In this document: piece after piece, positions 34,372 through 55,969 of the stretch
Layout: the number at the start of each line of letters is the position of its first letter
Position numbering within the stretch: the first letter of the stretch is position 1
Assembly (NCBI GenBank): GCA_000002435.2
Contig: CM018791.1
Strand: one strand, 5' to 3'
Source of the DNA: Giardia intestinalis
Taxonomy: Eukaryota
Length of the DNA: 64,000 bases
Translations under genes and position numbers: made by a program
The notes under the pieces: model-generated
Told to the model about the DNA's origin: nothing
The model's input: only the letters and a program-made list of their open reading frames with translations
The model's database searches: none

Positions 34372-34378
34372 GACACTG

Positions 34379-38095: not shown

Positions 38096-38157
38096 TGCTC
38101 CTGTCCATTCATTTAATTTAAGTGGCACAGAAAAGCTTGAAAACTAACGCGTTCACT
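38096..38157. promoter_or_regulatory. 62-bp divergent promoter region between RPC2-like (-) and hypothetical gene (+)
   Basis: Two divergent real ATGs are separated by 62 nt containing A/T-rich initiator tracts on both strands. Confidence 0.45.
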
Positions 38158-40362
38158 ATGTCAGATGCAGATGACGCTACCATCGAGCAGGCTCTCTGCA
38201 CTGAACCACTTGATTTACAGGTGGCCATGCCGCATATTAAACGAATTGTAAGTAAGGATTTCAACGCTCGCGAAAACATTATTGAGCTCCTTCAGCGTAG
38301 AGGGGCTGAGATCCTGCGGAATATCCTCAAAGCAGACGGCCTGCTCAACTCCACTGCTGACTGCTGGAAGCATGTCGTCCTGTTGGCCATACTAATTATT
38401 AAGTACTCGACATCCTCGTCTCTTGTCTACCTCATACAGCTCCTCCCTGACCGAGCGGCGAAGCTGGGTTCTGGGACCGACGGAGAGCATTATGCAGTAA
38501 GGCATATGTCACAGATTTTGGAGTTCTATATCCGCAAGCTTGTCTCTGACTCTATCTCCAGGTTTCCAGTGCCTCCTGAGGGCACAGAAGGAGATTCGTT
38601 GGTTACCTGGAAGACAGAGCTGGCGTACGTTCGGCCAGTGATTGCTCTTCTCCTCGCTGTGATAACCAGCAAGCAGGGCGAGCATGCTAATGTGACGGAA
38701 ATAGAGCCACTTCAAGAACGGGATATGTGCACAGGGTACATCTCTATGTTATCCCTCCTTCTCATATTCGAGGCTGGCAAGCGCACGTTCGTCGAGGCAG
38801 ACGGGTTCACTGTCCTAATGATGGTTGCTGCACAAACTCAGTCCATCCCGGTAGTGACTGCCATTCTGACAGCCTTCCACAGCTGTATTTTCAACCTTGT
38901 CGACAGCGTCAACGAAGAACTGGATGTCCCGGCCGCTGACTCCGCTTCTGGAGATTGCAATCCTAAGCAGACCACAGTGTACAACCTAGTGGTGGATGCA
39001 TTTGCCTTTGTGCGTCCTCACGAGCTTATTGAGTCTGTATATGAGCGCTTCTACCGTCTGCACTACGTACCAAAGCAGCCCATCTTTACCGAGGACCAGC
39101 TGAAGCAGCAGCTCACCGAGCTCACCTTTTCGGTAGTCTTACTGTTTCATGACTGTGCCCTCCCAGAAACAACTGGCTTCGTGACAGGGGAGAATCTGCT
39201 CTTCATTGCGCAATACATAGTTTCGGTTACCAAGGGTGTTAGCTTGTCAAAGCCAGCGCTGTGGCAGTCCGATGGGTCGCTCGCCACGTTTAATGCCAAG
39301 GTCAAGGGAGGATTAGAGGCACTTATGCGGCTGATCAGTTTGCACACAGAAACCCCCACGGCCATTAGGATTCTGATAAACGGATACAACCATGAGACTA
39401 AGGAGCATGATTCAGTGCAGTCCCAAGGCCCTGTTGCGGAGGACAAGTCAGTGGATGTTGAGGGTGGGGAAGAACCTCTCAGGAAGGCTGAGATGCCCGG
39501 AAATATTGACTTTCTCCGAGCTGTGGTTAACGCTGTCGCTGTCACTGACTGCTCAACGCTTGCTGGGACGCTGTTCTCCTTCCTCTCTCTCGTTGCATCG
39601 TACTCTTGCTGCTATAGTCGAAGATTGATAATACCACTGGAGTTTACATCCTATGAGAGGATTCTAAGATGGGTGAGTGCGTATGGCTCCTACATTCTCG
39701 GCGGGCACGCTGAGACGACAAAAATAATCCAGAACATGGAGGATACGTGCCTGGTCCTTGTGTGGCTGGTCGAGAACTCCTCTTCTGACAACGAGGAGGG
39801 TGCAGATATCGAAGAAGTGGCATCTAAGACGCTAACTCGCAATGAAATATGGGCCCGCCTTTCCATCAAGCAGGAGGCCCATGGAGTGCTGATGCTGGCC
39901 ATGGCAATGTCTGTCATCAAAGGTCTTGTGCCCACACTGACTGGTCTATTATCTGTTATCTCGTGCTTCATGGGCACCGATGGCTATTTCGTTAGACTCC
40001 TTACCGTCTTTAAAGAGAAGAAAGTAGAGATATGCAATTTCCTTGTTGATCTCTGTGCCAACCTAAGCAAGCAAGGCGCGTTCTGCTACGTTGTCTGCAA
40101 TAACATACTCAAAGGAATGTCGTCACTTCCAGATGCATTCTCATCGGTTGACGTCAACCAGTTGGCGGACGCGCTTCTCCCCCTGGGCTTCAGCGACGGC
40201 GATGACGACGTTCTGATGAAGATTGTTAACAGTTACGAGGAGATTCCTCCCGTTATAAAGGAATCTTGTAAGAAGATCTTGGCAATCATGGATGCTGTGG
40301 ACGGTGAAGAGATGGTGGCAAGGTCAGAGCCCTATGCCAGCCAGCCTGCAGCCGTTGGATAG
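38158..40362 (+). CDS. Hypothetical helical-repeat protein (734 aa)
   Basis: The track ORF starts at GTG. The first ATG (38158) follows AGAAAAGCTTGAAAACTAACG. The product is alpha-helical, possibly ARM/HEAT-like. AGTAAAT lies at 40366-40372, 4 nt after the TAG. Confidence 0.7.
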   Translation: MSDADDATIEQALCTEPLDLQVAMPHIKRIVSKDFNARENIIELLQRRGAEILRNILKADGLLNSTADCWKHVVLLAILIIKYSTSSSLVYLIQLLPDRAAKLGSGTDGEHYAVRHMSQILEFYIRKLVSDSISRFPVPPEGTEGDSLVTWKTELAYVRPVIALLLAVITSKQGEHANVTEIEPLQERDMCTGYISMLSLLLIFEAGKRTFVEADGFTVLMMVAAQTQSIPVVTAILTAFHSCIFNLVDSVNEELDVPAADSASGDCNPKQTTVYNLVVDAFAFVRPHELIESVYERFYRLHYVPKQPIFTEDQLKQQLTELTFSVVLLFHDCALPETTGFVTGENLLFIAQYIVSVTKGVSLSKPALWQSDGSLATFNAKVKGGLEALMRLISLHTETPTAIRILINGYNHETKEHDSVQSQGPVAEDKSVDVEGGEEPLRKAEMPGNIDFLRAVVNAVAVTDCSTLAGTLFSFLSLVASYSCCYSRRLIIPLEFTSYERILRWVSAYGSYILGGHAETTKIIQNMEDTCLVLVWLVENSSSDNEEGADIEEVASKTLTRNEIWARLSIKQEAHGVLMLAMAMSVIKGLVPTLTGLLSVISCFMGTDGYFVRLLTVFKEKKVEICNFLVDLCANLSKQGAFCYVVCNNILKGMSSLPDAFSSVDVNQLADALLPLGFSDGDDDVLMKIVNSYEEIPPVIKESCKKILAIMDAVDGEEMVARSEPYASQPAAVG

Positions 40363-40415
40363 ACTAGTAAATAACCCTGAAAAGCTAGATTTTTTAATCT
40401 CCCGCCTCAGCCACA

Positions 40416-41951
40416 ATGAGCCGCGCCACAGGGGTTCTGTTGGGCCCACATGAGGCTGAGATCAATGGAGAAAGAGTCATAAGCGCTGCGTGCTCCGATG
40501 GAGCGCAATTCAGAAGGCTGAGCATGGCATGGAGCTCGGCAGCAAGATTCCTTTCAGACACTCCTTCTGTACTTCCTCTTGAGAGTATCAATGGCAATCC
40601 GCAAAATCAGTCGATATACATCCGATTTAGGAAGATGAGCGGAGTATCTATGCAAACACTACTTCAACGGCATCAAAGTGCCAACCTCCCCTTCTCAGAG
40701 GAAGTGCTCCGCTCATATGCACTCCAGCTATTGACAGGAATATCTGCTCTCGAACGACTCAATTTCTGCCCGACCGTCTCACTTGATACCATACTCGTCT
40801 CTTCTAGCTTCTCTACCGATCCGTGCAACGCTTCCATGGATGATGCGCTAGACTACGCCGGTCTGCTCATTCACGGAGAGTGCTTCTTAACGTGTTATGA
40901 TCCAATTATTTCGACGGGGAAGAGTACTAGGGACTACGATCTCCACCCCCCTCCTCTGGTGTCTTTTTCTCGTGTTTTTGATGAGCTTTGCAAACTTCAA
41001 AAGCAGGACACATGTGCTGGCAGTGTGCCATATCGTGTGAGCTCCAAACCTGGCTCAGGGTATTCAAGGGAACTGCGGGTGCTCATGCGAGCTTGTTCTC
41101 AGGAGCATTCTGCATTGCGCCCATCTGCATACCATGCTTTGCAGTGGTTTAAACGGATTCATGCTGGGGTTGACCTCAGTTGTGTCAATGGTATTCCGAC
41201 CGTGTTCAGTATTACTCCAAGGGTGTCTCGCTCGCCCAGCCCGGTACGTAGTCCGAGTCCTAGCAGACTCGTCTCCCACCCAGACTATCCCGCACTATTG
41301 GGTAGCCAGCGCTGTCTAAGAGCCTATCTTGATAGTGAGCCTGACAGAAGTCTCGTTGAGGACCTCCTCGAGACGGCTGTTGCAAGAAGAAGTGTGATGG
41401 GGATAACAACTATTTCTGATCATTCAAGAAGGAAACAGGTCTTTGCCACTATCAAGCCTCGGGTGGGTGTTGCCGTTATGCGGGAGACTGCTCTTATGGC
41501 AGCGACCCGTGCTAATAATAGTGAAGCCGTACAACATATCTTAAAGACGTCTCCAGAGCTTCTGTGTTCAATACATTGTGGAGATACTAGTCTGCGGATA
41601 GCATCCAGACGAGGTCTGTTTTCTATAGTCCGCCTGCTGTTAAGTGAGCTTGGCATTCGGAGCCCTGCCGGCTGGACCGCGCTGATGTCTGCTGCACGAC
41701 ATGGTTATGATGACATAGTGAGGCTGTTACTCCCGGAGGCCGGAGCACAGTTACAGGATGGCACATCTGCGTTGATGCTTGCGTGCAGGTATGGCCACGC
41801 AAATTGTATAAGAGAACTGCGTGCCGTGGAGAAGAACCTGACAACAACCAATGGAAGCTCTGCCGTTGACTTCATTGCGGAGTCGTTTCACAACGGTACC
41901 CTGAGTAACGCAACAAGACAGAAGTGTCTAGATGCGCTAGCTGGTGAGTAA
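40416..41951 (+). CDS. Ankyrin-repeat protein with a highly degenerate kinase-like N-terminal region (511 aa)
   Basis: Real ATG after TAGATTTTTTAATCT. The N-terminal ~300 aa keep only vestiges of a kinase fold (LQLLTGISALERLNFCPTVSLDTILVS in place of the catalytic loop; no Gly-loop or VAIK). The C-terminus has about 4 ankyrin repeats (GWTALMSAARHGYDDIVRLLL, GTSALMLACRYGHANCIREL). The stop TAA is embedded in AGTAAAT (41947-41953). Confidence 0.8.
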   Translation: MSRATGVLLGPHEAEINGERVISAACSDGAQFRRLSMAWSSAARFLSDTPSVLPLESINGNPQNQSIYIRFRKMSGVSMQTLLQRHQSANLPFSEEVLRSYALQLLTGISALERLNFCPTVSLDTILVSSSFSTDPCNASMDDALDYAGLLIHGECFLTCYDPIISTGKSTRDYDLHPPPLVSFSRVFDELCKLQKQDTCAGSVPYRVSSKPGSGYSRELRVLMRACSQEHSALRPSAYHALQWFKRIHAGVDLSCVNGIPTVFSITPRVSRSPSPVRSPSPSRLVSHPDYPALLGSQRCLRAYLDSEPDRSLVEDLLETAVARRSVMGITTISDHSRRKQVFATIKPRVGVAVMRETALMAATRANNSEAVQHILKTSPELLCSIHCGDTSLRIASRRGLFSIVRLLLSELGIRSPAGWTALMSAARHGYDDIVRLLLPEAGAQLQDGTSALMLACRYGHANCIRELRAVEKNLTTTNGSSAVDFIAESFHNGTLSNATRQKCLDALAGE

Positions 41952-41953
41952 AT
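41947..41953 (+). promoter_or_regulatory. Polyadenylation signal AGTAAAT overlapping the TAA stop of the 40416 gene
   Basis: ggtgAGTAAATag. The stop codon lies inside the AGTRAAY match. Confidence 0.5.
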
Positions 41954-41960
41954 AGTATCG

Positions 41961-43580
41961 TCACGTAGAGACCATAGTAGTGAGCGTAACTGGATTGGTG
42001 GATAGTCCGTGCTTTGTTGTCTTTCTTTTCTTAACAAGTATGATTGCTAGTGTAATGACGGTAGCAGCAAGAAGTAGCACAGCAAGTGGCAACGTGATCG
42101 ATAGAATAAGCGTTGTCCTGTTAGTACTAAGCGGAGGAAAAGCAAAGGGAGAATCAGGATCATTATCCAAACATACCACAGAGGTCTCAGAAGATGATAC
42201 CAGACACTGCTTGCATCCCTTTATACCCTTCAGAGGTCCCGAGATAGTAGAATTATCGCAGCGAATGCAACCATGGACAGAGCTGGTCCAAAAGTATCCT
42301 GGTGCACAAAGATTGCACCCACTAGGCGACGAATCCTCGCAAGAGAGACAACCAGGTGCACACTGACTGCAGTGCACCTCCTCAGAGTCGACTGAAACTT
42401 GCGTGGAGTAGTATCCGTTAGAGCAGAAAGTACATATGTCCGGACTTGATGGACAAGCAAAGCAGCCAGTCATGGTACACTTAATGCACCCGCCGTCACT
42501 AGTCCGATGGTAGCCACACGTACAAGCTCGACAAGTCCCATAGGCGGCAGGATCTATTCGCTCTGCGGCGGCGCATACTAGTTTTCCCGGGGCATATAAT
42601 GAACTATAACACCCTCCTTGATGCAGAAAGTACCCCAGGGCACATTTAAGGCAGAGACCTTTGTCTGTTTGAGCACATGCAGAGATCTGCTGACCTGAAG
42701 TAGAAACGCACCTCCCATCGAGAGGAAAGAAGCCCTGGCTGCACCTAGAGCAATACCTTGCCGATCCCAGGATAGCATGACATTCCACGCACGGTCCTAC
42801 GGCGGCTTCGGCGCACTCTGGAACACAACGACCCATAGTGAGCACGTTAGAATCAGTCCTATATATGAAATATCCGTCAACACAGGAGGTACACTGATCT
42901 TCGATTGCTCGTTCACAAGAGTAACAATTTGCTGGACAGAGATCGCATGTATTTGTGATAGGATTTGCTGCATAGCCGATGGGGCAGCTGTGCAAACATA
43001 TTCTGCGTGCCGGCTGTAGAAAGTATCTTTTCTCACACAAAACGCAAGTGGCTCCAGAATCAGTTCCGTTGTTCTCGCAAACACAATTTGCTGGACAACC
43101 GCCCACTTCTAGACAGTTCCTCCCATCTAGGGAAAGACCAAATGGTATTTCGCACGCGTTGCAAATGTCAGCGTTATCGGTGCAAAGAGCGCAGCTGCTG
43201 ACCTTGCAAAGGATACACCCTTGTGCTCTGTTGCCTTGGTCTAGTCCATATCCAGCGATGCACGTACACTGTCTAGTATAGTAATTGGACGATGCACCGA
43301 TTCCACAGGAGGCCACGCACGATCTTCCATTAATGCTAACCATATAATCATACTCAGAACAATCTAGACATACAGGGGCTGTATCAGTGGAAGAGGGTAA
43401 CATGCAGCGAGAGCATCCTCTTATACCAGCGTATCCATGAACTGGCACTTCAGTACTACAAGAGATACAATATCCCCTGTCATTACCTTGAACTGCCAAG
43501 AAAGACGTACTATTGCACGACGTACATGAGGCATCGTCTTGACCATCACACGTAGTACAGGATTGGTGGCACGACGACAT
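41961..43580 (-). CDS. High-cysteine membrane protein (HCMP-like; ~11% Cys, CXXC/CXC motifs, single C-terminal TM, short basic cytoplasmic tail)
   Basis: 539 aa from the first ATG, with dozens of CXXC/CXC spacings. A hydrophobic TM segment (LILSITLPLAVLLLAATVITLAIILV) is followed by a KKRKTTKHG... tail rather than the VSP CRGKA tail. No N-terminal signal peptide is visible. The track ORF starts at a TTG. Confidence 0.85.
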   Translation of the reverse strand: MSSCHQSCTTCDGQDDASCTSCNSTSFLAVQGNDRGYCISCSTEVPVHGYAGIRGCSRCMLPSSTDTAPVCLDCSEYDYMVSINGRSCVASCGIGASSNYYTRQCTCIAGYGLDQGNRAQGCILCKVSSCALCTDNADICNACEIPFGLSLDGRNCLEVGGCPANCVCENNGTDSGATCVLCEKRYFLQPARRICLHSCPIGYAANPITNTCDLCPANCYSCERAIEDQCTSCVDGYFIYRTDSNVLTMGRCVPECAEAAVGPCVECHAILGSARYCSRCSQGFFPLDGRCVSTSGQQISACAQTDKGLCLKCALGYFLHQGGCYSSLYAPGKLVCAAAERIDPAAYGTCRACTCGYHRTSDGGCIKCTMTGCFACPSSPDICTFCSNGYYSTQVSVDSEEVHCSQCAPGCLSCEDSSPSGCNLCAPGYFWTSSVHGCIRCDNSTISGPLKGIKGCKQCLVSSSETSVVCLDNDPDSPFAFPPLSTNRTTLILSITLPLAVLLLAATVITLAIILVKKRKTTKHGLSTNPVTLTTMVST

Positions 43581-43914
43581 GTTAAAGTAGGCTCTCGAGA
43601 CCAAATTACTAGGTAGCCGTATCCTAAGAAATTAAAAGCTGATTGTTACGTAGAATTGTGTACATTAACATCAAGTAGCTGCATTGTATTACTGTAGCAT
43701 TGGTGAGAACATCTCTTGGATTTTTAGCGCTGCAGAGAAGGCCCGGGATCTGGTTGGTAAGATAACCTTTGTCCAGTGCAGTAGAAATGTCTTATTCATC
43801 AAAACACTGTGGTCGCGAGGAAGGTCTTGGTCAGTACAGATGCTCACTTTGTGCAACATAATCAAGAACCCGATTCAGTTTACAGTTGGACGAGAGCAAA
43901 TAAAAACTCCTAAT

Positions 43915-44472
43915 TTACTTGCAGCACCCGCCGCCCAGGCAGCAGAGCGCCGCGGCGTACATGGCTGTGAAGACTACCACATCGACGAGCCCGAGGACCA
44001 CGCCCGCCCACTTGTTGGAGGGGCCCTCAAGAAGGCCGCGGGGGCCCGCCGGGACGATGGCCGCGATGACGACGAAGGCGACGATGCAGCCCAGAATGAG
44101 CCCGAGGAACTTCAGCCCGCAGCTGTCCTTGTGGATGAAGAACGAGCCGATGACCACGGTGAAGGCCCAGCCGGCCGCGAGGGAGACCATCGACAGCCCG
44201 CTGTAGCCGCCCACGGTGTTGCTGAACGACTTATCGTTACCATTGTTCCCGTTCTTCGCCAGCACGGAGGTGATCAGGTACGTGAGGAAGTCCGCGAGCG
44301 AGGGGTACCCGACCCCGACCCCGATGCGGAACGCGTACTTGAGGAAGCAGTCGAGGCACCCGCAGCACCCGCAGCAGCAGCAGCTGCAGCAGCAGAGGAC
44401 GCACTTGAGGATCTGGACGACGATGCTGTAGATGATGCAGATCACGGCCACAATCATTATGAAGAGGAAGAG
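43915..44472. repeat. Left arm of a 558-bp inverted repeat (pairs with 46093..46650)
   Basis: The reverse complement matches the right arm with a single difference (GGG vs GGA Gly codon). The match ends exactly at the TAA stop. Confidence 0.9.
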
Positions 44473-44676
44473 CTTGCCCTCATTTTTATCAGTAAGACAC
44501 TGTATGGGATTTTTCCCATTACTGTTTCCCTTACTACCATTACTATCGAAACACGTTTTCAGCGTTTCTCCAATTGTTTTAGGATTTCTCCCCGGAAACC
44601 CTACAATCAGAGCATAAACAATCATCGGAACGCCCACACAGATGAGGGCAATGACGTCCTCATCGCAGCAGCACAT
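43915..44676 (-). CDS. Cysteine-string multi-pass membrane protein, paralogue A (253 aa)
   Basis: Real ATG after GGAATTTAAA. MCCCDED N-terminus, poly-Cys string CCCSCCCCGCCGC after TM2, C-terminal CCLGGGCCK, and 4-5 predicted TM helices. The 3' 558 nt are nearly identical to 46093..46650 on the opposite strand. Confidence 0.75.
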   Translation of the reverse strand: MCCCDEDVIALICVGVPMIVYALIVGFPGRNPKTIGETLKTCFDSNGSKGNSNGKNPIQCLTDKNEGKLFLFIMIVAVICIIYSIVVQILKCVLCCCSCCCCGCCGCLDCFLKYAFRIGVGVGYPSLADFLTYLITSVLAKNGNNGNDKSFSNTVGGYSGLSMVSLAAGWAFTVVIGSFFIHKDSCGLKFLGLILGCIVAFVVIAAIVPAGPRGLLEGPSNKWAGVVLGLVDVVVFTAMYAAALCCLGGGCCK

Positions 44677-45126
44677 TTTAAATTCCTTCGAACAAACCGA
44701 GTAAATAGATTTTGACGTATTGACGGTGTAAGGAACTTATGCAGATGCTTGTCTAATGGCACGTGTCCACAACTAGATTCAATATAGTCAGCTATATTTT
44801 CAAGTTTAGCGGCAACCCTTAAAAAACTATGCATGTAAACAAATTACACCAACAATCATAAATACTCGGATGGCTTCAGTGGTCCCGGGGGGCAAGAGGT
44901 AAGGCATTGATACAGACTGTTTCGTTGCTAGTGTACGATGCGACGAGCGTGATATAACAAACGTACACCTGGATCTAAGAGGCCTGAATCTCTCCGTCTA
45001 ATCGCACTCTTTGAACATAGATTTTCCTCCAGACACTTAAGTTTTCGCTTTGAAACGGACAGGTCTGCATTCAGCTGCTGATGTCGAAGTGTGGTGTGTT
45101 GCAGGGCACTCTCCTGCCGTCAAGCC

Positions 45127-45543
45127 TCACCCTCCACTTTTCCAGTTAGCTGTCCATCCCAAGTCTGATTTCGGAAAGTATACCTTGTTGCAGTACCTCA
45201 GAGCTGTTTGCAGTAAACCTTTTGCTGAATTGGGGTCACGGCTTTCGAACTGTGGAACCAGTCTTTCATCTGCGAGGGTCTGCTGAGGGCTGCGCCCCGG
45301 CTGTTCTGCGCACGCTCCCCTGCGGAGGCGGTGGCCGGGGGCGCACCGGTGGCAGTACTCCGGGACGGCGCAGACCGCGCAGTGCTCGACGGCGCAGGGC
45401 CCGGGGGTGCACGCCCGCCCGCCGTCTGCAGGGACCAGCTCGCCCTGGCAGCGCAGGCAGGCGGCGCCCGCGCACCGCTCGCAGCCGGGGACCGTCACCC
45501 CGCAGGGCAGGGCCGCGAGGAGGCGGAGGAGGCGTCCGGGCAT
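45127..45543 (-). CDS. Small secreted Cys-rich (CXXC) protein or VSP/HCMP-like N-terminal fragment (138 aa from MPGRLL)
   Basis: Signal-peptide-like MPGRLLRLLAALPCGVTVPG followed by four CXXC motifs (CERC, CLRC, CAVC, CHRC) within 60 aa. The 5' two-thirds are extremely GC-rich. It may be a pseudogene remnant. Confidence 0.3.
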   Translation of the reverse strand: MPGRLLRLLAALPCGVTVPGCERCAGAACLRCQGELVPADGGRACTPGPCAVEHCAVCAVPEYCHRCAPGHRLRRGACAEQPGRSPQQTLADERLVPQFESRDPNSAKGLLQTALRYCNKVYFPKSDLGWTANWKSGG

Positions 45544-45830
45544 CGGCGTGTTTTCGGCCAAAAATCTGGCGATGTCTACGGCGCCCGCGACCTGGGACAC
45601 GCACTGGGCGCGCCACTGGCGCCTGGCCTGGGACTACGTCCTCGGGGCCGCCGTGGCAGGGCTCCTCCTGGTGTGCGGGGTGCGCTCCCCGGGCCAGGCA
45701 GGGGACCCGGACCCCCGGCGCAGCCCCCGCAGCCCCCGGCGCCGCAGCTCCTTCGAGGGCCGGGCTCCCCCGCGCCGGCGGGAGACGAGCGACCCCGACG
45801 TCGACTGCTCCGACTAGCCCGGGGCACGCG
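45290..45830. other. GC-rich island (visually >70% GC) in the spacer between the inverted paralogues
   Basis: Dense GC-rich codons give spurious open frames on both strands and in several frames (ORFs 45222..45845, 45266..45868, 45331..45840, 45407..45817, 45576..45827). Flanking DNA is about 45-50% GC. Confidence 0.7.
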
Positions 45831-45900
45831 AATCCCATAAAGTGAACGTCAACGCTTTTCCGGCACAATCACCGGGTAGTTTATTGATGGAGAAAAATAA

Positions 45901-46650
45901 ATGTGCTGCTGCGACGAGGACATCATCGCCCTCATCTGCGTGGGCATCCCGATGATCGCGTACGCGGTGGTAGTCGGCTTTCCGGGGAGAGACCCCAGCA
46001 AGGTTGGAGCGGCATTGAAAGAGTGTCTCAGTAACAAAAATGGTAAGAATCTTCTGGCCTGCATCAGTGAGAAGGGGGATAACTACGGCGGCCTCTTCCT
46101 CTTCATAATGATTGTGGCCGTGATCTGCATCATCTACAGCATCGTCGTCCAGATCCTCAAGTGCGTCCTCTGCTGCTGCAGCTGCTGCTGCTGCGGGTGC
46201 TGCGGGTGCCTCGACTGCTTCCTCAAGTACGCGTTCCGCATCGGGGTCGGAGTCGGGTACCCCTCGCTCGCGGACTTCCTCACGTACCTGATCACCTCCG
46301 TGCTGGCGAAGAACGGGAACAATGGTAACGATAAGTCGTTCAGCAACACCGTGGGCGGCTACAGCGGGCTGTCGATGGTCTCCCTCGCGGCCGGCTGGGC
46401 CTTCACCGTGGTCATCGGCTCGTTCTTCATCCACAAGGACAGCTGCGGGCTGAAGTTCCTCGGGCTCATTCTGGGCTGCATCGTCGCCTTCGTCGTCATC
46501 GCGGCCATCGTCCCGGCGGGCCCCCGCGGCCTTCTTGAGGGCCCCTCCAACAAGTGGGCGGGCGTGGTCCTCGGGCTCGTCGATGTGGTAGTCTTCACAG
46601 CCATGTACGCCGCGGCGCTCTGCTGCCTGGGCGGCGGGTGCTGCAAGTAA
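45901..46650 (+). CDS. Cysteine-string multi-pass membrane protein, paralogue B (249 aa)
   Basis: Real ATG after GAGAAAAATAA. The domain layout matches paralogue A. The N-terminal ~65 aa diverged (MCCCDEDIIALICVGIPMIAYAVVVGFPGRDPSKVGAALKECL...), and the remainder is identical. Confidence 0.75.
   Translation: MCCCDEDIIALICVGIPMIAYAVVVGFPGRDPSKVGAALKECLSNKNGKNLLACISEKGDNYGGLFLFIMIVAVICIIYSIVVQILKCVLCCCSCCCCGCCGCLDCFLKYAFRIGVGVGYPSLADFLTYLITSVLAKNGNNGNDKSFSNTVGGYSGLSMVSLAAGWAFTVVIGSFFIHKDSCGLKFLGLILGCIVAFVVIAAIVPAGPRGLLEGPSNKWAGVVLGLVDVVVFTAMYAAALCCLGGGCCK
46093..46650. repeat. Right arm of the 558-bp inverted repeat
   Basis: See left arm. The arms are separated by about 1.6 kb (44473-46092), which holds both divergent 5' gene ends and the GC island. 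Confidence 0.9.
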
Positions 46651-46662
46651 ACGGCGCCCGGC

Positions 46663-48183
46663 CTACTGCTCGGTCTCCTCGTAGATCGTGATCTCGGAGC
46701 AGTCTGCGCACCGGAGCCCGCTGTCCTCCGAGACGGGGACCTGGAAGATCACCCTGCAGAAGCGCATGAACCGGTTTGCGTACGCGTCGCTCGGGACCGC
46801 GGAGATCCCGTCCTTGTCTGCGCACAGCCCCTTCGCCCTGCGCTCGACGTGCTTGATGCTCCTGAACTCGGTGAGGAAGTCGACGACGCCCATGTGGAGG
46901 ACCCGGTAGTAGAGGGCCGACCCCCGCAGCGTGGGCCCCAGGGCGCAGGCGGGGGAGAACGCGTAGAGCCCGCCCTCCTCGCTGTGGAAGATGTCGCTGC
47001 TCTGGATGGCCGCCTCGAACGTGAAGCGGCGCCGGAAGACCTCCCGGAGGTACTCGTCGGGGGGCAGCGCGGCGAGGAACGCGGACGTCCCCCGGCTCCC
47101 CCCGGCCGCGATGCTGTGGCCCACCGGGGGCAGCATGTCCGAGACGTCCCGCGTGCTGAGGATGGTTCTCGGGGAGCTGGCAGCAAGAAGGCGGTCGTAG
47201 AAGCGCTGCACAGGGGTCTTGGCATCTTCGCTGTGGACTTTATCGGCTTCGATAGTGTTGTTGGTTGGCGTGCCCGGGGCCGCTGCGGGATCATCGTCAC
47301 GCTCTCTGTCCTGAATACACGGGATATCGTCCGTGAGACCCAAGAGTAGGCTGTAGTCTATCAGGTTGTGCTGCTTGAGCCAATCTGAGTCTGCCTTGAG
47401 CTGATGGATCAGGAGCCGCCGCCGGAGGGTTGTGAGGTAAATGTAGTTCTCCATATTTGTGTCCTTCAAGGTCTTTTTGGCCCGATCATCAGGAGCATGC
47501 AGCTTTGTGTGCCGGCCAACCCAGGAGCCCTTCAGGTCATACCGCTCAACTATCTTTCGAGGAGTGGCGAAAAGGTTTGGTATGATAATAAAATGCTTAC
47601 CATGCTTGGAGGTCCTATGTGGCGCTGAAGAAGTGCCGGGCTTACCGGTAGTGATAGTGAACATTGCGTAGATCCGGATGAGAAGTGAGCTAGGGTTATC
47701 TAGAAGGTGCCGCCCGTATGATGCGCAGATCTTTAGCATGAGAACAAGCTCCTTGGGCTTTAGTTGCTTAATAAGATACTTACCAGACTCGCTGAAAATA
47801 AAGAATGTGGGGCTTTTACCGGGCGACTTCATTAGCCCAGGGTGGCTGCATGTGACAAACTCTTTTAGCAGCGACTGAGGATTGAGGGAATCTTTTGTCA
47901 TTAGCGTTCTAAACATAGACGCATGATAGAAGATGGCAGTCAAATCGCTTCCAAGTGGCGCACTGGTGTTGGGATCCACCTCACTGCCGGGTAAAGCCAA
48001 TACTGTCATAAGGCCTTCTGTCTCGGAGCTGTATGGGTTCTCACCAGTCTGAGTTTGAGTTTCAATAACTTTTCCAATAGCCTGTTGCACGCGCCGTACA
48101 TGTGGATAGAGCGAACTCTGAACAGTCAGTTGCTCGCCAGAATATGGCCGTTGGTCATACTCCAACTTCCCCAACAGAACCAT
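46663..48183 (-). CDS. Phosphatidylinositol phosphate kinase (PIPK/PIP5K-domain) protein (506 aa)
   Basis: Real ATG after GATGATTAAAAA. PIPK core motifs are present: GKSPTFFIFSESGKYLIKQLKPKE (G-loop/substrate region), IDYSLLLGL (catalytic-loop region) and LHMGVVDFLTEFRSIKHVERRAKGL (activation-loop/C-terminal signature). The 3' ~640 nt are markedly GC-rich. Confidence 0.85.
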   Translation of the reverse strand: MVLLGKLEYDQRPYSGEQLTVQSSLYPHVRRVQQAIGKVIETQTQTGENPYSSETEGLMTVLALPGSEVDPNTSAPLGSDLTAIFYHASMFRTLMTKDSLNPQSLLKEFVTCSHPGLMKSPGKSPTFFIFSESGKYLIKQLKPKELVLMLKICASYGRHLLDNPSSLLIRIYAMFTITTGKPGTSSAPHRTSKHGKHFIIIPNLFATPRKIVERYDLKGSWVGRHTKLHAPDDRAKKTLKDTNMENYIYLTTLRRRLLIHQLKADSDWLKQHNLIDYSLLLGLTDDIPCIQDRERDDDPAAAPGTPTNNTIEADKVHSEDAKTPVQRFYDRLLAASSPRTILSTRDVSDMLPPVGHSIAAGGSRGTSAFLAALPPDEYLREVFRRRFTFEAAIQSSDIFHSEEGGLYAFSPACALGPTLRGSALYYRVLHMGVVDFLTEFRSIKHVERRAKGLCADKDGISAVPSDAYANRFMRFCRVIFQVPVSEDSGLRCADCSEITIYEETEQ

Positions 48184-48313
48184 TTTTTAATCATCCTCCG
48201 ACGCTTTTCCTTTCGATCGGATGCCAATATTATCCTATTTACTAAGATAGTACGAGCCATGAGAGGTATAGTGGCTGCGAATCCTATATATGTAAATAGA
48301 AAATAAAGAACTA

Positions 48314-48673
48314 ATGAGCACAGGACATAACGAGAAAGAGCACTCAATCACAGTAGACCTTCACGAGGAAATAGAAAACTTCATGAACAATGTGATCTCC
48401 CTAGAGGTGGAGCTTGCCTCCCACATTCGAGGACTGGATCTCATGTCTCACCAGCTAAACAAGATCATTGACAATCTCACTGGGTGTAAGACGCAGGAAG
48501 CAGAGTATGACAGTGACACCACAGATAATGGAGAGCCCCCGCGTCCCAAATACTCCATGGAAGGATTTGAGAAGCGTGTACAAGAGGTGATGGAAGAAAT
48601 AAATAAAGACGCCGTTGCGCTAAGGCATCTGCGTGAAGAAGCCATCCAAATCCGTGAGAATTGCTTGGCGTAA
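48314..48673 (+). CDS. Small coiled-coil hypothetical protein (119 aa)
   Basis: Real ATG with a strongly AT-rich leader (tatatatgtaaatagaaaataaagaactaATG). Acidic helical protein. Its stop is 7 nt from the convergent BBS9-like stop. Confidence 0.45.
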   Translation: MSTGHNEKEHSITVDLHEEIENFMNNVISLEVELASHIRGLDLMSHQLNKIIDNLTGCKTQEAEYDSDTTDNGEPPRPKYSMEGFEKRVQEVMEEINKDAVALRHLREEAIQIRENCLA

Positions 48674-48680
48674 GGATGCT

Positions 48681-51605
48681 CTATGCAAATCTGGCTAAAA
48701 GGCTGCGGGTTCCTAATCGAAGTTGATCTGGTGTTGGACAGTTGGCAAAGTCATATGTGCGTGGACTGGATACCGAATCGTCATCTTGTTTGGAATAATA
48801 TGTAATAAAGTAGTACAAGTGTGATGGGTGTTCGAACTCTGTCAGGCATTGGTGCAGCTGCTCAAAGCCCTCCTCCGTGGGCTCTCCTCTCATCAAGAAG
48901 CAAATACCTATAATACCTACAACTACGTTCATGCCCGCCCTTAGCTTTTGTAGCAGATGCTGATGGTTAGCAGACAGCTGTTGCGCATCACGAAGCTGCA
49001 GCTCGTAGTAGGACAAGAGAGCATCAACCTTCTCTCCTACATTCGTACACCGTGTAGCCGACAGGACGCTCTGACCCTGATTGAAGGTAGCCTGAGTAAG
49101 AAACCCAATACTTCCCAAAATGGACTGGTAGGAGAATTGAGAGTACTTAGGCAAGAGCTTAGTGAAGTCCACATCAAATGGCTGCGTGCCAAATGGAATC
49201 CGTGGAATGACTTCCGTGACAAGTTGCAGGACATCAGCAACAAGTTCCGAGGTTACACCCAAGCGTAGGTTGAGCTTCTCCAAGGCGTTGCTCAGCTCCA
49301 CACATTGGCCGTAGATATCCAGGAGTTTGTCAAGTATTAGCTCTTCGCTATAGTCTATACCCGTAATTTGGAAGAAGCTCTTGTATCCCAGAAGAAACTC
49401 TATCCCAAGGGGTAGTATTTCCAGAGCAGTTGCCGTAATGTGAAGCTGCATGTCCTGGAAAGAAACAACTACCTGGCCGTGGACTCCTGCAATTATGCAC
49501 ACAGCATTCGGCGACTTCTTCCCCACCTCAGAGAGGATAGATGCAGAGAAGGGCCGCTTAAGTAGGAGCTCATGAAGGGTAGAAAAAGACTCCTTAGGGC
49601 TTATCTTTAAAGAGACCCTTAAGGGTAGATCGGTGGCTTTCGGAAAAACAGAGCTCTCACGAACTAGAGCACTCGAAAACAATGGAAGGGATAGGCTGCG
49701 CGTTACAACAAAGGGTACTGACAGAAGACAGTCCTCTGACGGGATCTTTACATTGGCACAGATGGAAAGATGCAGAGATGGTGAGACAAAGAAGGAAAGA
49801 TCGGAGATCCCTAGCTTGATGTAGACAGTAGCCGGTGCTCCGCTGCCAAGATGCACTATTGTACTTGTTATTGATCTGAAGCATTCTCTATCCCCAAGTT
49901 GAATAAAAGAAGACGGTGGGCCTGCTAGTGGTGCATGGATATCTTTGTTATCAGAGGAAAGAAAAGAGGGATACTCTGCAAGGGACGATAGGTCGGTGAT
50001 GGGCTCCTCATAGCTTCCGCAGCCAGTAACTCCGAGCGTTGCCGAAGGCAATCGACCAGATACAGCTTTAAGTGTTAGTTCTATTATGGTGTAATTTGTG
50101 TTGCCATCCCGATAAAACTTACTGATGCCGCAGTTAACAGTAATGAGCTCATCCAAGCCTGTGCGCATGCTCGCATGCTGGGCTTTTAAAGCGCTTACTC
50201 GCTTCTGGGCTTCCTCCATCAAGGTCTTCGTTACAGCTTGTTTCGGGATAGCAATAGGTGAGAGAAGAGAAGGAAGCAAACTACTGGGTCTTCCATCAAC
50301 GTCCAAGGGGTTGGTCCCAAGGAGGTGAACCTGTATAGATCCACTGCGGGACTGGACCACAAACAAGCCATCCTGGCTACACATCTTTGGAGGACTACGA
50401 GGTACAAACAATTGGGCCATGTATTGCGGAGTATGAACGCCCACAGGCTCGTCGATGCTATCCGATAGCCTAGACGTCCATCTAAGTTCACCTCCGCGGA
50501 AGAAGTGAAGTGTCCTATTGGAGTCTAAGACAACAATTGACGAAATCTCAGGCAAATTGATCCTTCTCTGCCGAATCGGCTGGGAGGTGGACTCCTTTTC
50601 CTTGACTGGAGCTCTGAATAAGGCCATGCTGAATAAGAGCCCATCTGGGAGCTGATTTTCCACGGAAAGCAATCCTGTAGATGCGTTGACAAGTGTTATA
50701 CCGTGTGTGTGCAGAGCGATGACCTCGCCTTCCAGTCCTGAGTCTACTCCGAAGCAGCGGCCGTAGGAAAGTTGCTGAATCCGCTCACCAATGACATAAG
50801 TCCATTGTGGCTTCAGCGGAGAAGAGCGGACGTCCTTGCTTGATTGTGGCACACCGCGCAAAAGGGGGTTTCCCTCATCATTAAATGTACTTGCAGGTCC
50901 AGTTGCATCATGCTCGGTACTACTATTCCATGCTTCACCTCCAGTATCATTCATAACATCTGCACAGGAAAAAGATACAATCGTGTAATCAAACGTGGCT
51001 ATGACCAATGAGTTAGTCCCCGGGCAAAAGGCCATCGGAGTAGGGAAACTGTACATAAGTCCTAGACGGTGGGTGGCCATCACTCTACGGGCACAGATGT
51101 GTAGTATGCCATCGTCTGTCCTTACTGCAAGCCTACTATGATAGAGGGCAGCGCCGGCCTCAGTACTAGGACTTGGCAAGGTGATGACACATGTGGAAAT
51201 TATGTACCTGCTAAAGTGCACCGTACTCACCAGCTCTAAGCCTATATCGCCGTCTTGCAATCTTTTAGGAGTGTAGATACCAATCGAGTGGGGATGAACT
51301 ACCGCCAACTCCAAATTTTCGGGCTTGCTGGCCGCCTCGTCAATGAGCGGGGATGGACCAGTGAAGAAGCCCAACTCAAGGCCCAGAATGGGGTTTTCTG
51401 TCTCGCTAGAAAATACTGTGTTCGTGAGAGTCTCGGACTCGTTACTCTCAGTCCGCAGCACCGTGAGCCGCCCCGCCAGGGATCCGACGACAATCTGAGC
51501 CGAGTTGTTCTTGGCGCGCATCAGATTAAGGACTGCCACTGCCCTAGCATCCACACGCTCCTCCAAGGCGTGAGACCAGCAGGGAACCGTTGAAAAGAGA
51601 GACAT
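48681..51605 (-). CDS. BBS9/PTHB1-like protein (BBSome subunit; N-terminal beta-propeller + helical C-terminus), 974 aa
   Basis: Real ATG. The N-terminus MSLFS...W....NSAQIVVGSLAGRLTVL...NPILGLELGFFTG...LAVVHPHSIGIY parallels human PTHB1 MSLFKARDWW...NGQDKIIVGSFMGYLRIF...DPILQVEVGKFVSG...LAVLHSRKLCVY. The comparison is from memory, and the length matches. A CDS is certain; the family assignment is moderately confident. Confidence 0.6.
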   Translation of the reverse strand: MSLFSTVPCWSHALEERVDARAVAVLNLMRAKNNSAQIVVGSLAGRLTVLRTESNESETLTNTVFSSETENPILGLELGFFTGPSPLIDEAASKPENLELAVVHPHSIGIYTPKRLQDGDIGLELVSTVHFSRYIISTCVITLPSPSTEAGAALYHSRLAVRTDDGILHICARRVMATHRLGLMYSFPTPMAFCPGTNSLVIATFDYTIVSFSCADVMNDTGGEAWNSSTEHDATGPASTFNDEGNPLLRGVPQSSKDVRSSPLKPQWTYVIGERIQQLSYGRCFGVDSGLEGEVIALHTHGITLVNASTGLLSVENQLPDGLLFSMALFRAPVKEKESTSQPIRQRRINLPEISSIVVLDSNRTLHFFRGGELRWTSRLSDSIDEPVGVHTPQYMAQLFVPRSPPKMCSQDGLFVVQSRSGSIQVHLLGTNPLDVDGRPSSLLPSLLSPIAIPKQAVTKTLMEEAQKRVSALKAQHASMRTGLDELITVNCGISKFYRDGNTNYTIIELTLKAVSGRLPSATLGVTGCGSYEEPITDLSSLAEYPSFLSSDNKDIHAPLAGPPSSFIQLGDRECFRSITSTIVHLGSGAPATVYIKLGISDLSFFVSPSLHLSICANVKIPSEDCLLSVPFVVTRSLSLPLFSSALVRESSVFPKATDLPLRVSLKISPKESFSTLHELLLKRPFSASILSEVGKKSPNAVCIIAGVHGQVVVSFQDMQLHITATALEILPLGIEFLLGYKSFFQITGIDYSEELILDKLLDIYGQCVELSNALEKLNLRLGVTSELVADVLQLVTEVIPRIPFGTQPFDVDFTKLLPKYSQFSYQSILGSIGFLTQATFNQGQSVLSATRCTNVGEKVDALLSYYELQLRDAQQLSANHQHLLQKLRAGMNVVVGIIGICFLMRGEPTEEGFEQLHQCLTEFEHPSHLYYFITYYSKQDDDSVSSPRTYDFANCPTPDQLRLGTRSLLARFA

Positions 51606-51750
51606 AGTTCTCTGCCCAGGGCCAAAACGAGAAAAGATGAAAAAATATCACATCTGTACCCCAATGTGTAAAAATGTCACGCCATAATGCAAAACCTAAA
51701 TTTTATTTTAAATTCATTTTCAATGCTGCCCGAAAAGCGAGGACGACTCG
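51606..51750. promoter_or_regulatory. 145-bp divergent promoter region (BBS9-like / RPL21)
   Basis: AT-rich tracts (aaacctaaattttattttaaattcattttcaatg) lie immediately upstream of both divergent ATGs. Confidence 0.45.
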
Positions 51751-52230
51751 ATGACGCACAGCCAGGGGTACAGGTGTAAGACGCGCTACTGCTTCGCACG
51801 CAAGTTCCGTAGACACGGAATGGCCAACCTGACGACATACAACCGCGTCTACAAGCTCGGCCAGTACGTCAACATCAAGGTGAACGGGGCTTATCACAAG
51901 GGGATGCCCCACCGCTACTACAACGGGCGCACAGGCACAATCTTCAACATCGGGCCGCGTGCCCTCGGTGTCCAGATCCAGAAGCGCGTCCGCGGCCGCA
52001 TCATGCTCAAGCGCATCAATGTGCGTCTGGAGCACGTTCACCCGTCAGACTGCAGGAAGAACCACCTGGAGCGCGTTGCCGCCAACGACGCTGCCCGCAG
52101 GCTCGCGAAGGAGACCGGCCAGCCTGTCCCATGCCTCAAGAGACAAAACGCCCTTCCCAGGGCCGCACACGTGGTCAGCATAGCATCTGCCATCGACATC
52201 ACCCCACTCAAGTATGACGGAGTTTTCTAG
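51751..52230 (+). CDS. RPL21: 60S ribosomal protein L21e
   Basis: 159 aa. MTHSQGYRCKTRYCFARKFRRHG...KGMPHRYYNGRTGTIFNIG...KRINVRLEHV aligns along its length with eukaryotic L21e ([23 protein letters not shown]...KGMPHKCYHGKTGRVYNV...KRINVRIEHI). AGTAAAT lies at 52241-52247. Confidence 0.95.
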   Translation: MTHSQGYRCKTRYCFARKFRRHGMANLTTYNRVYKLGQYVNIKVNGAYHKGMPHRYYNGRTGTIFNIGPRALGVQIQKRVRGRIMLKRINVRLEHVHPSDCRKNHLERVAANDAARRLAKETGQPVPCLKRQNALPRAAHVVSIASAIDITPLKYDGVF

Positions 52231-52240
52231 GCTCCGACGA

Positions 52241-52247
52241 AGTAAAT
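52241..52247 (+). promoter_or_regulatory. Polyadenylation signal AGTAAAT for RPL21
   Basis: Exact AGTRAAY match 11 nt after the RPL21 TAG. Confidence 0.5.
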
Positions 52248-52261
52248 GGCCTGCGGGGCGG

Positions 52262-54076: not shown

Positions 54077-54181
54077 ATTTTTAAATCTTCTAGACCCTCC
54101 CAAGCAGAGCCCAAAACCCGAAAGTGTGTCTCTGGCTCCCAAAGAGCCAGGTGATAGAGATTTACACGACAAACTAGATAA

Positions 54182-55849: not shown

Positions 55850-55969
55850 CAATTATGTGCTTTTCTATCTGTGCTATGCAAATGTAATTAAGTATGAAAT
55901 TTGTGTTTTAAATACATTTCAACTATTTTTACACAATCTCAAAACACAAAAGGAAACCCAGAGCGACGA
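55850..55969. promoter_or_regulatory. 120-bp AT-rich divergent promoter region (coiled-coil gene / DNAAF1-like)
   Basis: aattatgtgcttttctatctgtgctatgcaaatgtaattaagtatgaaatttgtgttttaaatacatttcaactatttttacacaatctcaaaacac lies between divergent ATGs. Confidence 0.45.

Follow-up and report, generated by a model that had tools for sequence, protein, structure and literature searches.

Two neighbouring, divergently transcribed genes of Giardia intestinalis strain WB, here called L and R, carry 3′ parts that are identical at all but one position, and a comparison with a second isolate makes it likely that they and a third copy, P248, located ~75 kb away on the same chromosome, recombine non-allelically with one another, the outcomes being recurrent gene conversion, apparently GC-biased, and, as it appears, crossovers that generate inversions. 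The pair lies in a stretch of 64,000 nucleotides (the window), and to this stretch all coordinates refer.

An inverted repeat that ends at the stop codons

Gene L (43915–44676, minus strand; 253 aa, XP_001710015 / KAE8303016) and gene R (45901–46650, plus strand; 249 aa, XP_001710016 / KAE8303017) are arranged head-to-head, and both open reading frames are intact. A preliminary description of this locus had proposed a near-perfect inverted duplication of 558 bp. A repeat search, a base-by-base comparison and a self-BLAST of the region, the last of which had been suggested as a check, agree on a single inverted repeat with arms at 43914–44472 (minus strand; GC 63%, GC3 94%) and 46093–46651 (plus strand; GC 63%, GC3 93.5%). 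The duplication thus stands, with the correction that each arm measures 559 nt, that is, the 3′ 558 nt of the gene and one nucleotide past the stop. The arms are 1620 nt apart and complementary at 558 of 559 positions; their sole mismatch, at 44314/46251, is the synonymous glycine difference already reported, GGG in the minus-strand gene L and GGA in the plus-strand gene R. Within the 64-kb window, no repeat of at least 80 nt was found besides this inverted pair.

The limits of identity also proved to be those described earlier. Inward, identity reaches the first codon of the ...LFLFIMIVAV... segment (44472/46093), while outward it stops one base past each TAA, and in the base-by-base comparison the following 28 positions are essentially unrelated. 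The 5′ parts of the genes, which we refer to as heads, had been called diverged, and the 204 nt of L and 192 nt of R indeed align at 69–73% with indels, all similarity being lost 2 nt upstream of the ATGs. The L-type head (44473–44676, minus strand) encodes the first transmembrane helix and a variable loop; the R-type head occupies 45901–46092 on the plus strand. The boundary at the stop codon is an old junction common to WB and the isolate DHA2, not a property of the conversion machinery: identity ends there in WB because the tail junction of L is the old one, ‘T1’, beside a VSP-like gene, a point at which homology to the other copies would always have ended. Two short-read contigs (L008 and L009) break off exactly at the stop codon, where the repeat has its boundary. 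In DHA2, the arms run on for 518 nt into the gene for phosphatidylinositol-4-phosphate 5-kinase (PIP5K).

Additional copies and the full repeat unit

L and R are two of four paralogues. Three of them (L, R and P248) constitute the converting system, and the fourth, P264, has a diverged tail with 75% nucleotide identity except for one short shared stretch. The three-copy system, P264 and a duplicated PIP5K fragment are all absent from the preliminary description. Gene R, the GC-rich region upstream of it and the 3′-terminal 502 nt of the PIP5K coding sequence together make up the full R-type repeat unit (45299–47164, plus strand). The P248 and PIP5K-fragment copies, at other sites on the chromosome, share this unit, and among R-type copies the upstream 600 nt are 97–100% identical. 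The complete PIP5K gene (46663–48183, minus strand; 506 aa, XP_001710017) is convergent with R at a distance of 12 nt. Its duplicated 3′ part (46652–47164, minus strand; GC3 90–100%) has a truncated counterpart, GL50803_112368 / XP_001709973, which adjoins P264 and is identical to the full gene at 156 of 157 positions, both in WB and in DHA2; the WB fragment was located by exact look-up, a similarity search with the fragment having given no match. In one SRA contig (L003), a P248-type gene is joined to the complete PIP5K gene.

Near-identity of this kind could have arisen from collapsed or consensus-polished WB paralogues, and the difference in gene order described below from a misjoined DHA2 contig: repeats of 0.5–1 kb are hard for 454 and short-read assemblers, the contigs of other isolates end there, and L003 may be a chimeric assembly. 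We consider such an artefact unlikely. The L, R, P248 and P264 proteins and their order are identical in the Sanger (2007) and PacBio (2019) assemblies of WB, and WB was checked by optical maps and split-read alignment (PMC7000408). Since both proteins of the pair are present in the 2007 (XP_) and 2019 (KAE) versions and the same architecture recurs in DHA2 and in metagenome and SRA contigs, the repeat itself is not the assembly artefact that the preliminary description had named as its possible refutation. In DHA2, sites that discriminate the arms recur over the full length of the repeat at distances of at most 295 nt, which makes that assembly plausible, though unproven.

Heads follow orthology and tails follow the genome

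The cross-isolate comparison that had been proposed for the locus was run between WB (A1) and DHA2 (A2). The heads group by orthology: those of L are 91.2% identical between the two isolates and those of R 92.2%, as against 69–75% between paralogues (69% for the L and R heads of WB). The R-type head of WB likewise shares 92% identity with the DHA2 R′ and P248 heads and 99% with that of the A1 P248. The tails, on the other hand, group by genome. Within WB the arms are 99.8% identical between L and R and 98.9–99.1% identical to that of P248, and within DHA2 they are 98.0–99.3% identical, while between the isolates the values are 97.5–98.6%. The pattern is one of concerted evolution: in the converted segment only, the similarity of paralogues within a genome equals or exceeds that of orthologues between genomes; the unique flanks of WB and DHA2 are 97.96% identical.

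Individual substitutions display the same pattern. At alignment columns 240, 248 and 318 all three WB copies differ from all three DHA2 copies, the change at column 248 being visible in the proteins (IMIVAV in WB, IMIVAA in DHA2), and at columns 492 and 756 the derived states are restricted to L and R of WB. The GGG of L at 44314 is the state of all DHA2 copies, and the GGA of R at 46251 is also found in L003, an A1 contig of the P248 type. The arm variants NN/NG, DK/deletion and EG/DN occur among the copies in all four pairwise combinations; at one of these sites, within a low-complexity Asn/Gly run, recurrent slippage could also be at work. Tract ends vary, since the L-type head of a metagenome copy (P0023) gives way to the R type earlier and the DHA2 L′ head bears an R-type patch. 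Homogenisation also reaches unconstrained sequence, namely the truncated PIP5K fragment and the upstream block. Scanning JGI metagenomes with an invariant 29-mer from the arms yielded no further isolates. With heads that are orthologous between WB and DHA2, arms that are homogenised within each genome and derived states that are shared by paralogues, gene conversion between paralogues is well supported, and the earlier preference for this process over a recent whole-gene duplication is borne out.

For this pair in this genome, one recent tract would suffice to explain a single difference in 559 positions, and one might therefore envisage a solitary event, either a partial duplication or a tract that pasted the 3′ end of R into L, with nothing ongoing. 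This is very unlikely. The same three copies are homogenised in DHA2 as well, with other combinations of variants, and the tract ends differ among isolates. In WB as in DHA2, the PIP5K fragment has been kept at ~99% identity to the gene, and the PIP5K copy of isolate P15 is 94.5% identical to the WB gene compared with ~87% in the adjoining unique sequence. Finally, the GC3 saturation of 93–100% described below needs long-term, repeated exchange. Under recurrent conversion, the last homogenisation of L and R in WB would have occurred well after the split of A1 and A2, as one difference is seen where about 11 would be expected.

A step in base composition at the repeat edges

Third-position GC content is 93–100% exactly within the repeated segments and about 50% elsewhere. 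The converting arms have a GC3 of 93–94%, whereas the non-converting arms of P264 are at 54–60% and the neighbouring genes at 43–59%. The step is visible inside single genes: in L, GC3 drops from 93–94% in the arm to 44% in the head (the R-type head has 75%), and along PIP5K it varies between 44 and 80% before rising to 100% from codon 351, at the duplication boundary. A GC-rich island at 45280–47250 coincides with the repeat unit at 45299–47164. The confinement of high GC3 to repeated segments points to GC-biased conversion, and on this compositional evidence the conversion appears to be GC-biased. The recent changes that can be polarised number only about five and are mixed (one T-to-C, one G-to-A, one C-to-T, the others ambiguous); as the substitutions that spread recently are not all AT-to-GC, the bias is deduced from the equilibrium composition and not from a polarised substitution spectrum. 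We also considered the GC mosaic as a sign that conversion ran from R to L, and rejected it as such because the arms are GC-rich in every copy and R of WB shares the ‘no deletion’ state with the L type.

Purifying selection at the nucleotide level, acting on codon usage or on an RNA element, could in principle keep the 3′ parts identical without recombination. The protein tail is strongly conserved across the family, and one stretch of 29 nt shows no variation, P264 and assemblages B and E included, as such selection would have it. Yet selection cannot place derived substitutions in all paralogues of one isolate, hold the upstream block, which is non-coding, and the truncated part of PIP5K at 97–100% identity, or produce a GC3 step inside one transcript. 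P264, moreover, encodes a similar tail with only 75% nucleotide identity, and a search of 43000–47500 against Rfam gave no match. We regard this explanation as highly improbable.

Gene order differs between WB and DHA2

In WB the order is P248-PIP5Kfrag-P264...VSP547-L(-)-spacer-R(+)-PIP5K, and in DHA2 it is P248-VSP547...P264-PIP5Kfrag-R'(-)-spacer-L'(+)-PIP5K. In the one 454 assembly available for this comparison, window positions 43914–47164 align to DHA2 in reverse and 45899–56650 align forward on the same contig, while the left flank (33916–44472) aligns reversed ~78 kb away. Two changes thus separate the orders: the 1.2-kb spacer is flipped, and a ~75-kb block is inverted; both breakpoints lie within these genes. 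The spacer between the start codons (44677–45900) is colinear with that of DHA2 and has the opposite orientation relative to the right-hand PIP5K flank, which accords with the spacer inversion that the preliminary description had envisaged. Judged from these alignments, which for the inversions come from a single 454-era DHA2 contig, two inversions between the strains appear to have had their breakpoints in the repeats.

In 200x PacBio data for WB, no structural variation was detected within the isolate (Xu et al. 2020, PMC7000408). Flipping is therefore not frequent in culture. Contigs from P15 and assemblage B either end at the repeats (L007, L010) or sit in unrelated contexts (L006, L011), and those of assemblages B and E break at the repeats or occupy other contexts, so that as outgroups they do not polarise the rearrangements. 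Formation of a hairpin or cruciform by the inverted repeat, which had been raised as a further possibility, is unlikely because the spacer is 1.6 kb long, and a loop of this size strongly disfavours cruciform extrusion. A programmed invertible switch or cruciform-forming element that chooses which gene is expressed would fit inverted arms that enclose both promoters and a segment found in both orientations across isolates, but it is scarcely credible and was rejected, since inversion swaps identical coding tails and alters only the 3′ flank, leaving promoter, head and protein unchanged, since no recombinase gene is found among the neighbours (a VSP-like protein, an ankyrin protein and PIP5K), and since no orientation heterogeneity was reported in the 200x WB PacBio data (PMC7000408).

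A model of recurrent exchange

We propose a long history of non-allelic homologous recombination among L, R and P248. Where it ended without a crossover, that is, in gene conversion, the conserved 3′ 559 nt would have been overwritten time and again, together in some copies with the upstream region and the adjoining 3′ fragment of PIP5K, and such overwriting would be why identity among the copies of one genome stays at 98–99.8%. Most tracts would leave out the 5′ heads and the promoters, which have diverged, while synonymous sites in the repeated segments would have been driven to 93–100% G/C. If the difference in gene order is biological, crossovers between inverted copies would account for the flip of the 1.2-kb spacer and the inversion of the ~75 kb block, and these inversions would be nearly silent, because the swapped tails encode the same protein sequence.

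We see in this locus a new and clear case of a process already known, closest to the ‘inverted pairs’ of Giardia vsp genes, and not a new kind of biology. In WB, 14 pairs of identical vsp ORFs lie head-to-head or tail-to-tail at 2.2–3.8 kb from each other; they were ascribed to recent duplication and described as a ‘cryptic observation’ (Adam et al. 2010, PMC2996952), and the PacBio assembly contains 19 duplicated VSP pairs (Xu et al. 2020, PMC7000408). Like them, L and R are nearby inverted Giardia copies with near-perfect identity that ends abruptly, a kilobase-scale spacer and short-read contigs that terminate at the repeat. Unlike them, L and R are not VSPs (they have neither a Pfam VSP match nor a CRGKA tail), and their spacer is shorter, with 1.2 kb between the ORFs. 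In the vsp pairs the whole ORF is identical and identity extends 139–729 bp beyond it, whereas in L and R it covers the 3′ 73% (558 of 762/750 nt, the heads being at 69%) and in WB ends 1 nt past the stop, the heads and promoters being old and diverged. Where the vsp pairs were read as recent duplications, the cross-isolate data for L and R point to recurrent conversion.

In the palindromes of the human Y chromosome, GC-biased conversion from arm to arm keeps the arms alike, and the arms mediate inversion of the spacer. The Giardia pair resembles them in having inverted arms that are more than 99.8% identical, together with apparent GC-biased conversion between arms and spacer inversion, but operates on a scale of 0.56–1.9 kb instead of tens of kb to Mb, involves a third, distant copy and resides in a tetraploid protist without established meiosis. 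Flip-flop inversion between large inverted repeats is likewise known from the inverted repeats of plastid genomes and from the yeast 2-micron plasmid. There, as is proposed here, homologous recombination between inverted arms reverses the middle segment without loss of information; the Giardia pair, in contrast, shows no evidence of coexisting isomers in one strain and has no dedicated recombinase. As for composition, GC enrichment confined to ectopically recombining sequences is shared with multicopy families such as rDNA and histone genes. In Giardia, GC-biased gene conversion has so far only been suggested, and this for rDNA (PMC10123126, citing Escobar et al. 2011). Unlike rDNA, the present locus has sharp GC edges inside protein genes that look single-copy, and the step in PIP5K, where GC3 climbs from 65–80% to 100%, is an internal control that rDNA lacks.

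The locus documents homogenisation, a probable GC bias and inversions as a by-product. As a natural experiment, it may reveal ectopic conversion in Giardia to be strongly GC-biased, frequent enough to bring synonymous sites to ~100% G/C and a source of breakpoints for large, phenotypically silent inversions between sub-assemblages, although we would stop short of calling this probable. Were it to hold generally, it would explain the GC-rich islands at VSP, HCMP and rDNA loci and their link to synteny breaks, as well as the occurrence of identical Giardia genes only as nearby inverted pairs. The sexual and recombinational biology of this tetraploid, binucleate organism, with almost no allelic heterozygosity in assemblage A, is still debated, and the locus offers a small, tractable case with internal controls: the converting tail against the non-converting head of one gene, the duplicated against the unique part of PIP5K, and the diverged tail of P264. 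For annotators and population geneticists it carries a warning that SNPs and synteny breaks near these genes reflect exchange between paralogues, not orthologous divergence.

The protein family and the spacer ORF

L and R belong to a Giardia-only family of cysteine-rich multipass membrane proteins. The 25 cysteines of L sit in juxtamembrane clusters and the C-terminal end reads ...GGGCCK; that these proteins are palmitoylated is a guess. No Pfam family was matched by the L and R proteins, and the quality of the AlphaFold model (all-helical, pLDDT 57) did not permit a fold search. Among 1.8 billion representative sequences, a profile search returned 16 matches, and every one with a named source is from Giardia, G. 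muris included. Long antisense ORFs in the arms (for example 43684–44715, plus strand) were taken as by-products of GC richness. The spacer contains an unannotated, CXXC-rich ORF of 157 codons (orf157; 45127–45600, minus strand) that may be a gene or a pseudogene. It had no match in the protein database; both DHA2 and a metagenome contig conserve it, and it shares 44% protein identity with the sequence upstream of an assemblage-B paralogue.

An inverted repeat joins the 3′ parts of two divergent paralogues

The head-to-head genes L (43915-44676, minus strand; intact ORF, 253 aa) and R (45901-46650, plus strand; intact ORF, 249 aa) share inverted-repeat arms at 43914-44472 and 46093-46651. Repeat search, base-by-base comparison and self-BLAST gave arms of 559 nt with a spacing of 1620 nt and one mismatch (44314/46251), a synonymous GGG codon in L and GGA in R. 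Identity reaches outward to 1 base past the TAA of both genes and inward to the first codon of LFLFIMIVAV. The repeat comparison therefore agrees with the preliminary description of a near-perfect, partial inverted repeat in a divergent gene pair, with one GGG/GGA difference and identity ending at the stop codon; only the arm size, put there at 558 nt, has to be corrected. The 5′-most 204 nt of L and 192 nt of R (the heads) are ~69-73% identical, with indels, and their similarity ends 2 nt upstream of the ATGs. No further repeats of at least 80 nt were found across the 64-kb window.

By exact look-up, L is XP_001710015/KAE8303016 and R is XP_001710016/KAE8303017 of G. intestinalis WB (ATCC 50803), both unchanged between the 2007 Sanger and 2019 PacBio assemblies. 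The family, for which there is no Pfam model, has named members exclusively in Giardia, G. muris among them. Its product is a membrane protein of the multipass type, whose 25 cysteines are grouped beside hydrophobic helices (structure prediction was too poor for use), and L and R differ only in the first helix and first loop. Neighbouring genes match Giardia families, namely a VSP-like cysteine-rich protein, an ankyrin protein and the phosphatidylinositol-4-phosphate 5-kinase PIP5K (46663-48183, minus strand). Two more WB paralogues, P248 (XP_001709972) and the more divergent P264 (XP_001709974), lie with L and R on one 1,973,847-bp contig, and between P248 and P264 is a 157-codon 3′ fragment of PIP5K (XP_001709973 = GL50803_112368). 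The assemblage B (GS) paralogues, found in contigs L006 and L011, adjoin other VSP genes and share no gene neighbourhood with the assemblage A loci, so either the family moved or the region was rearranged between A and B.

Arms group by genome and heads by orthology

We aligned ten copies, including L′ and R′, the counterparts in the assemblage A2 isolate DHA2. Head identities follow orthology (91.2% for L and 92.2% for R between WB and DHA2, 69-75% for L versus R), and arm identities follow the genome: 99.8%, 98.9% and 99.1% within WB, 98.0-99.3% within DHA2 and 97.5-98.6% between the isolates, the last being the comparison that had been suggested for arm identity. Unique flanks of WB and DHA2 differ by 2.0%. 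Had the L and R arms been independent since the A1/A2 split, ~11 differences would be expected; 1 is observed (Poisson P ~2e-4). At three sites all WB copies differ from every DHA2 copy; one is an amino-acid change (IMIVAV/IMIVAA) present in the deposited proteins. Two additional derived states are common to WB L and R only. Every pairwise combination of arm variants was found among the copies. At 1 of 157 residues in WB, and at 1 in DHA2, the truncated PIP5K fragment departs from the C-terminus of the full gene. One old duplication cannot yield these head/arm, shared-variant and fragment patterns, and nor can protein-level selection. The grouping of arms by genome and heads by orthology, together with the derived states common to paralogues, supports the earlier proposal of ongoing conversion of the 3′ part of the gene pair.

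The ends of conversion tracts vary, since the metagenome copy P0023 changes from L-type to R-type sequence within its head and an R-type patch sits in the head of DHA2 L′. On an ENA metagenome contig (L008), the head of an L-type gene (1040-1798) turns R-type (KNLLACISEKGDGYGG) ~15 codons ahead of the WB arm boundary, a putative different tract end in another isolate. Arm identity is 99.8% for L and R, 1.6 kb apart, and about 99% for each against P248, ~75 kb away, which is consistent with a distance effect.

The L and R heads (44473-44676 and 45901-46092, compared with contig L001) differ by 8-9% between WB and DHA2, ~4 times the 2% of unique flanks; the first loop may evolve fast, or conversion between the head types may have been patchy. 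A 29-nt stretch, TGCGGGTGCCTCGACTGCTTCCTCAAGTA (46201-46229, mirrored at 44336-44364), is invariant in ten of ten copies, including P264 and those of assemblages B and E. Around it P264 is identical to R at 40 of 40 positions, and its GC3 is 81-96% there versus 54% elsewhere. This sequence pattern suggests that P264 received a short conversion tract or that the stretch is under nucleotide-level constraint.

Heads and tails are paired differently in the WB and DHA2 assemblies

Comparison with DHA2 contig AHGT01000002 and short contigs defined an R-type repeat unit (45299-47164) in which the gene is preceded by a very GC-rich block and followed by the final 502 nt of convergent PIP5K. Three heads, H1 (P248, adjoining the ribulose-phosphate epimerase gene, RPE), H2 (R) and H3 (L), combine with three tails: T1 adjoins the VSP-like gene, T2 is the PIP5K fragment with P264 after it, and T3 is complete PIP5K. 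T1 starts alike in WB L and DHA2 P248 (TAAATTAGGAG...), and T2 and T3 start with TAAACGGCGCC.... Since L carries T1, without homology to T2 or T3 past the stop codon, this edge of the WB repeat is an old junction. The local inverted repeat in DHA2 is longer (~1080 nt) because PIP5K sequence is in both arms. Short-read contigs from other samples terminate precisely at the stop codon, the behaviour that a repeat boundary would produce. Contig L003 (Logan SRR14213831), corresponding to 45326-48175, encodes the exact WB P248 protein, including its 3-nt deletion, and runs on into complete PIP5K instead of the fragment and P264. Either this is a short-read chimera, or the contig comes from an isolate whose R position holds P248-type sequence.

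The DHA2 genes lie on a single contig in the order RPE, P248(+), VSP547(+), Ank511(-), then after ~75 kb P264(-), PIP5K fragment(+), R′(-), spacer, L′(+) and PIP5K(-). The WB order, derived from the window, the accession order and contig L002 (fragment end directly upstream of P264), is P248, PIP5K fragment, P264, then Ank511(+), VSP547(-), L(-), spacer, R(+) and PIP5K(-). Pairing is H1-T1, H2-T2 and H3-T3 in DHA2 and H1-T2, H2-T3 and H3-T1 in WB, a cyclic change that takes two reciprocal exchanges, each between inverted copies. One would flip the spacer and the other would invert the ~75-kb block, both crossovers falling inside the homogenised tails. In alignments with the DHA2 contig, window segments 33916-44472 and 43914-47164 are reversed and 45899-56650 is forward. 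Inversion of the spacer, which had been raised as a possibility, is thus seen in its opposite orientation relative to PIP5K on this one 454-era contig, whose discriminating arm sites are at most 295 nt apart, making the assembly credible. WB PacBio data are reported to show no structural variation within the isolate (PMC7000408); another study predicts many inversions within WB. We consider the WB/DHA2 inversions likely to be real. As the exchanged tails encode identical protein, inversion alters only the 3′ flank of each gene, and nothing at the locus points to a programmed switch. With a loop of 1.6 kb, a cruciform is unlikely to extrude.

Repeated segments stand out in GC content

The arms of L, R and P248 reach 93-94% GC3, as against 44% in the head of gene L itself. 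The P264 arms, merely 75% identical to the converting copies, have 54-60%. Eight of nine other window genes tested fall at 43-59%; the ninth, PIP5K, reaches 71% owing to its duplicated 3′ part. Along PIP5K, GC3 is 44-60% over codons 1-250 and 65-80% up to codon 350; from codon 351, ~10 codons within the duplication boundary at 47164, to the stop, six of eight 20-codon blocks are at 100% and the others at 90% and 94%. The rise coincides with the part (46663-47164, codons ~340-506) duplicated as GL50803_112368, and a compositional island at 45280-47250 matches the repeat unit. We read this pattern as long-term GC-biased gene conversion; recent substitutions in the alignment are too few for a direct test of the bias. 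In the portion of the literature consulted, such conversion in Giardia is merely suggested, for rDNA (PMC10123126), and GC-rich islands at variable gene families, linked to synteny breaks, are described without a mechanism.

Long ORFs antisense to or overlapping the GC-rich segments (43684-44715, plus strand; 45814-46434, minus strand; 45222-45868, both strands) are most likely by-products of high GC, which leaves few stop codons, and not genes.

Relation to known inverted gene pairs

The nearest described phenomenon is the identical inverted vsp pairs of WB (PMC2996952, PMC7000408). In contrast to these, L and R are not VSPs and their identity is partial, ending at the stop codon, which places the locus outside that class. 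It probably shares their working, offering an explanation for the 'cryptic' class. Nearby inverted copies would convert efficiently, and recombination between them, unlike that between direct repeats, could not delete the intervening segment. Y-chromosome palindromes evolve in concert, with conversion that is GC-biased and inversions that arise through non-allelic homologous recombination, and the L/R locus resembles them in these respects. The locus adds a new, well-controlled case of a process already known, and its significance would be greater if the GC-biased reading held genome-wide. Overall, the preliminary reading is supported and extended.

The spacer (44677-45900) contains an unannotated 157-codon ORF (45127-45600, minus strand) with a signal-peptide-like start (MPGRLLRLLAALP) and CXXC motifs. 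A search of a 5.8-billion-protein database returned no homologue. The ORF is kept in contig L008 and, shortened by an in-frame deletion of 24 nt, in DHA2; it has 44% protein identity to sequence upstream of the assemblage B paralogue in L006. Either a small cysteine-rich gene or the remains of a VSP/HCMP would fit.
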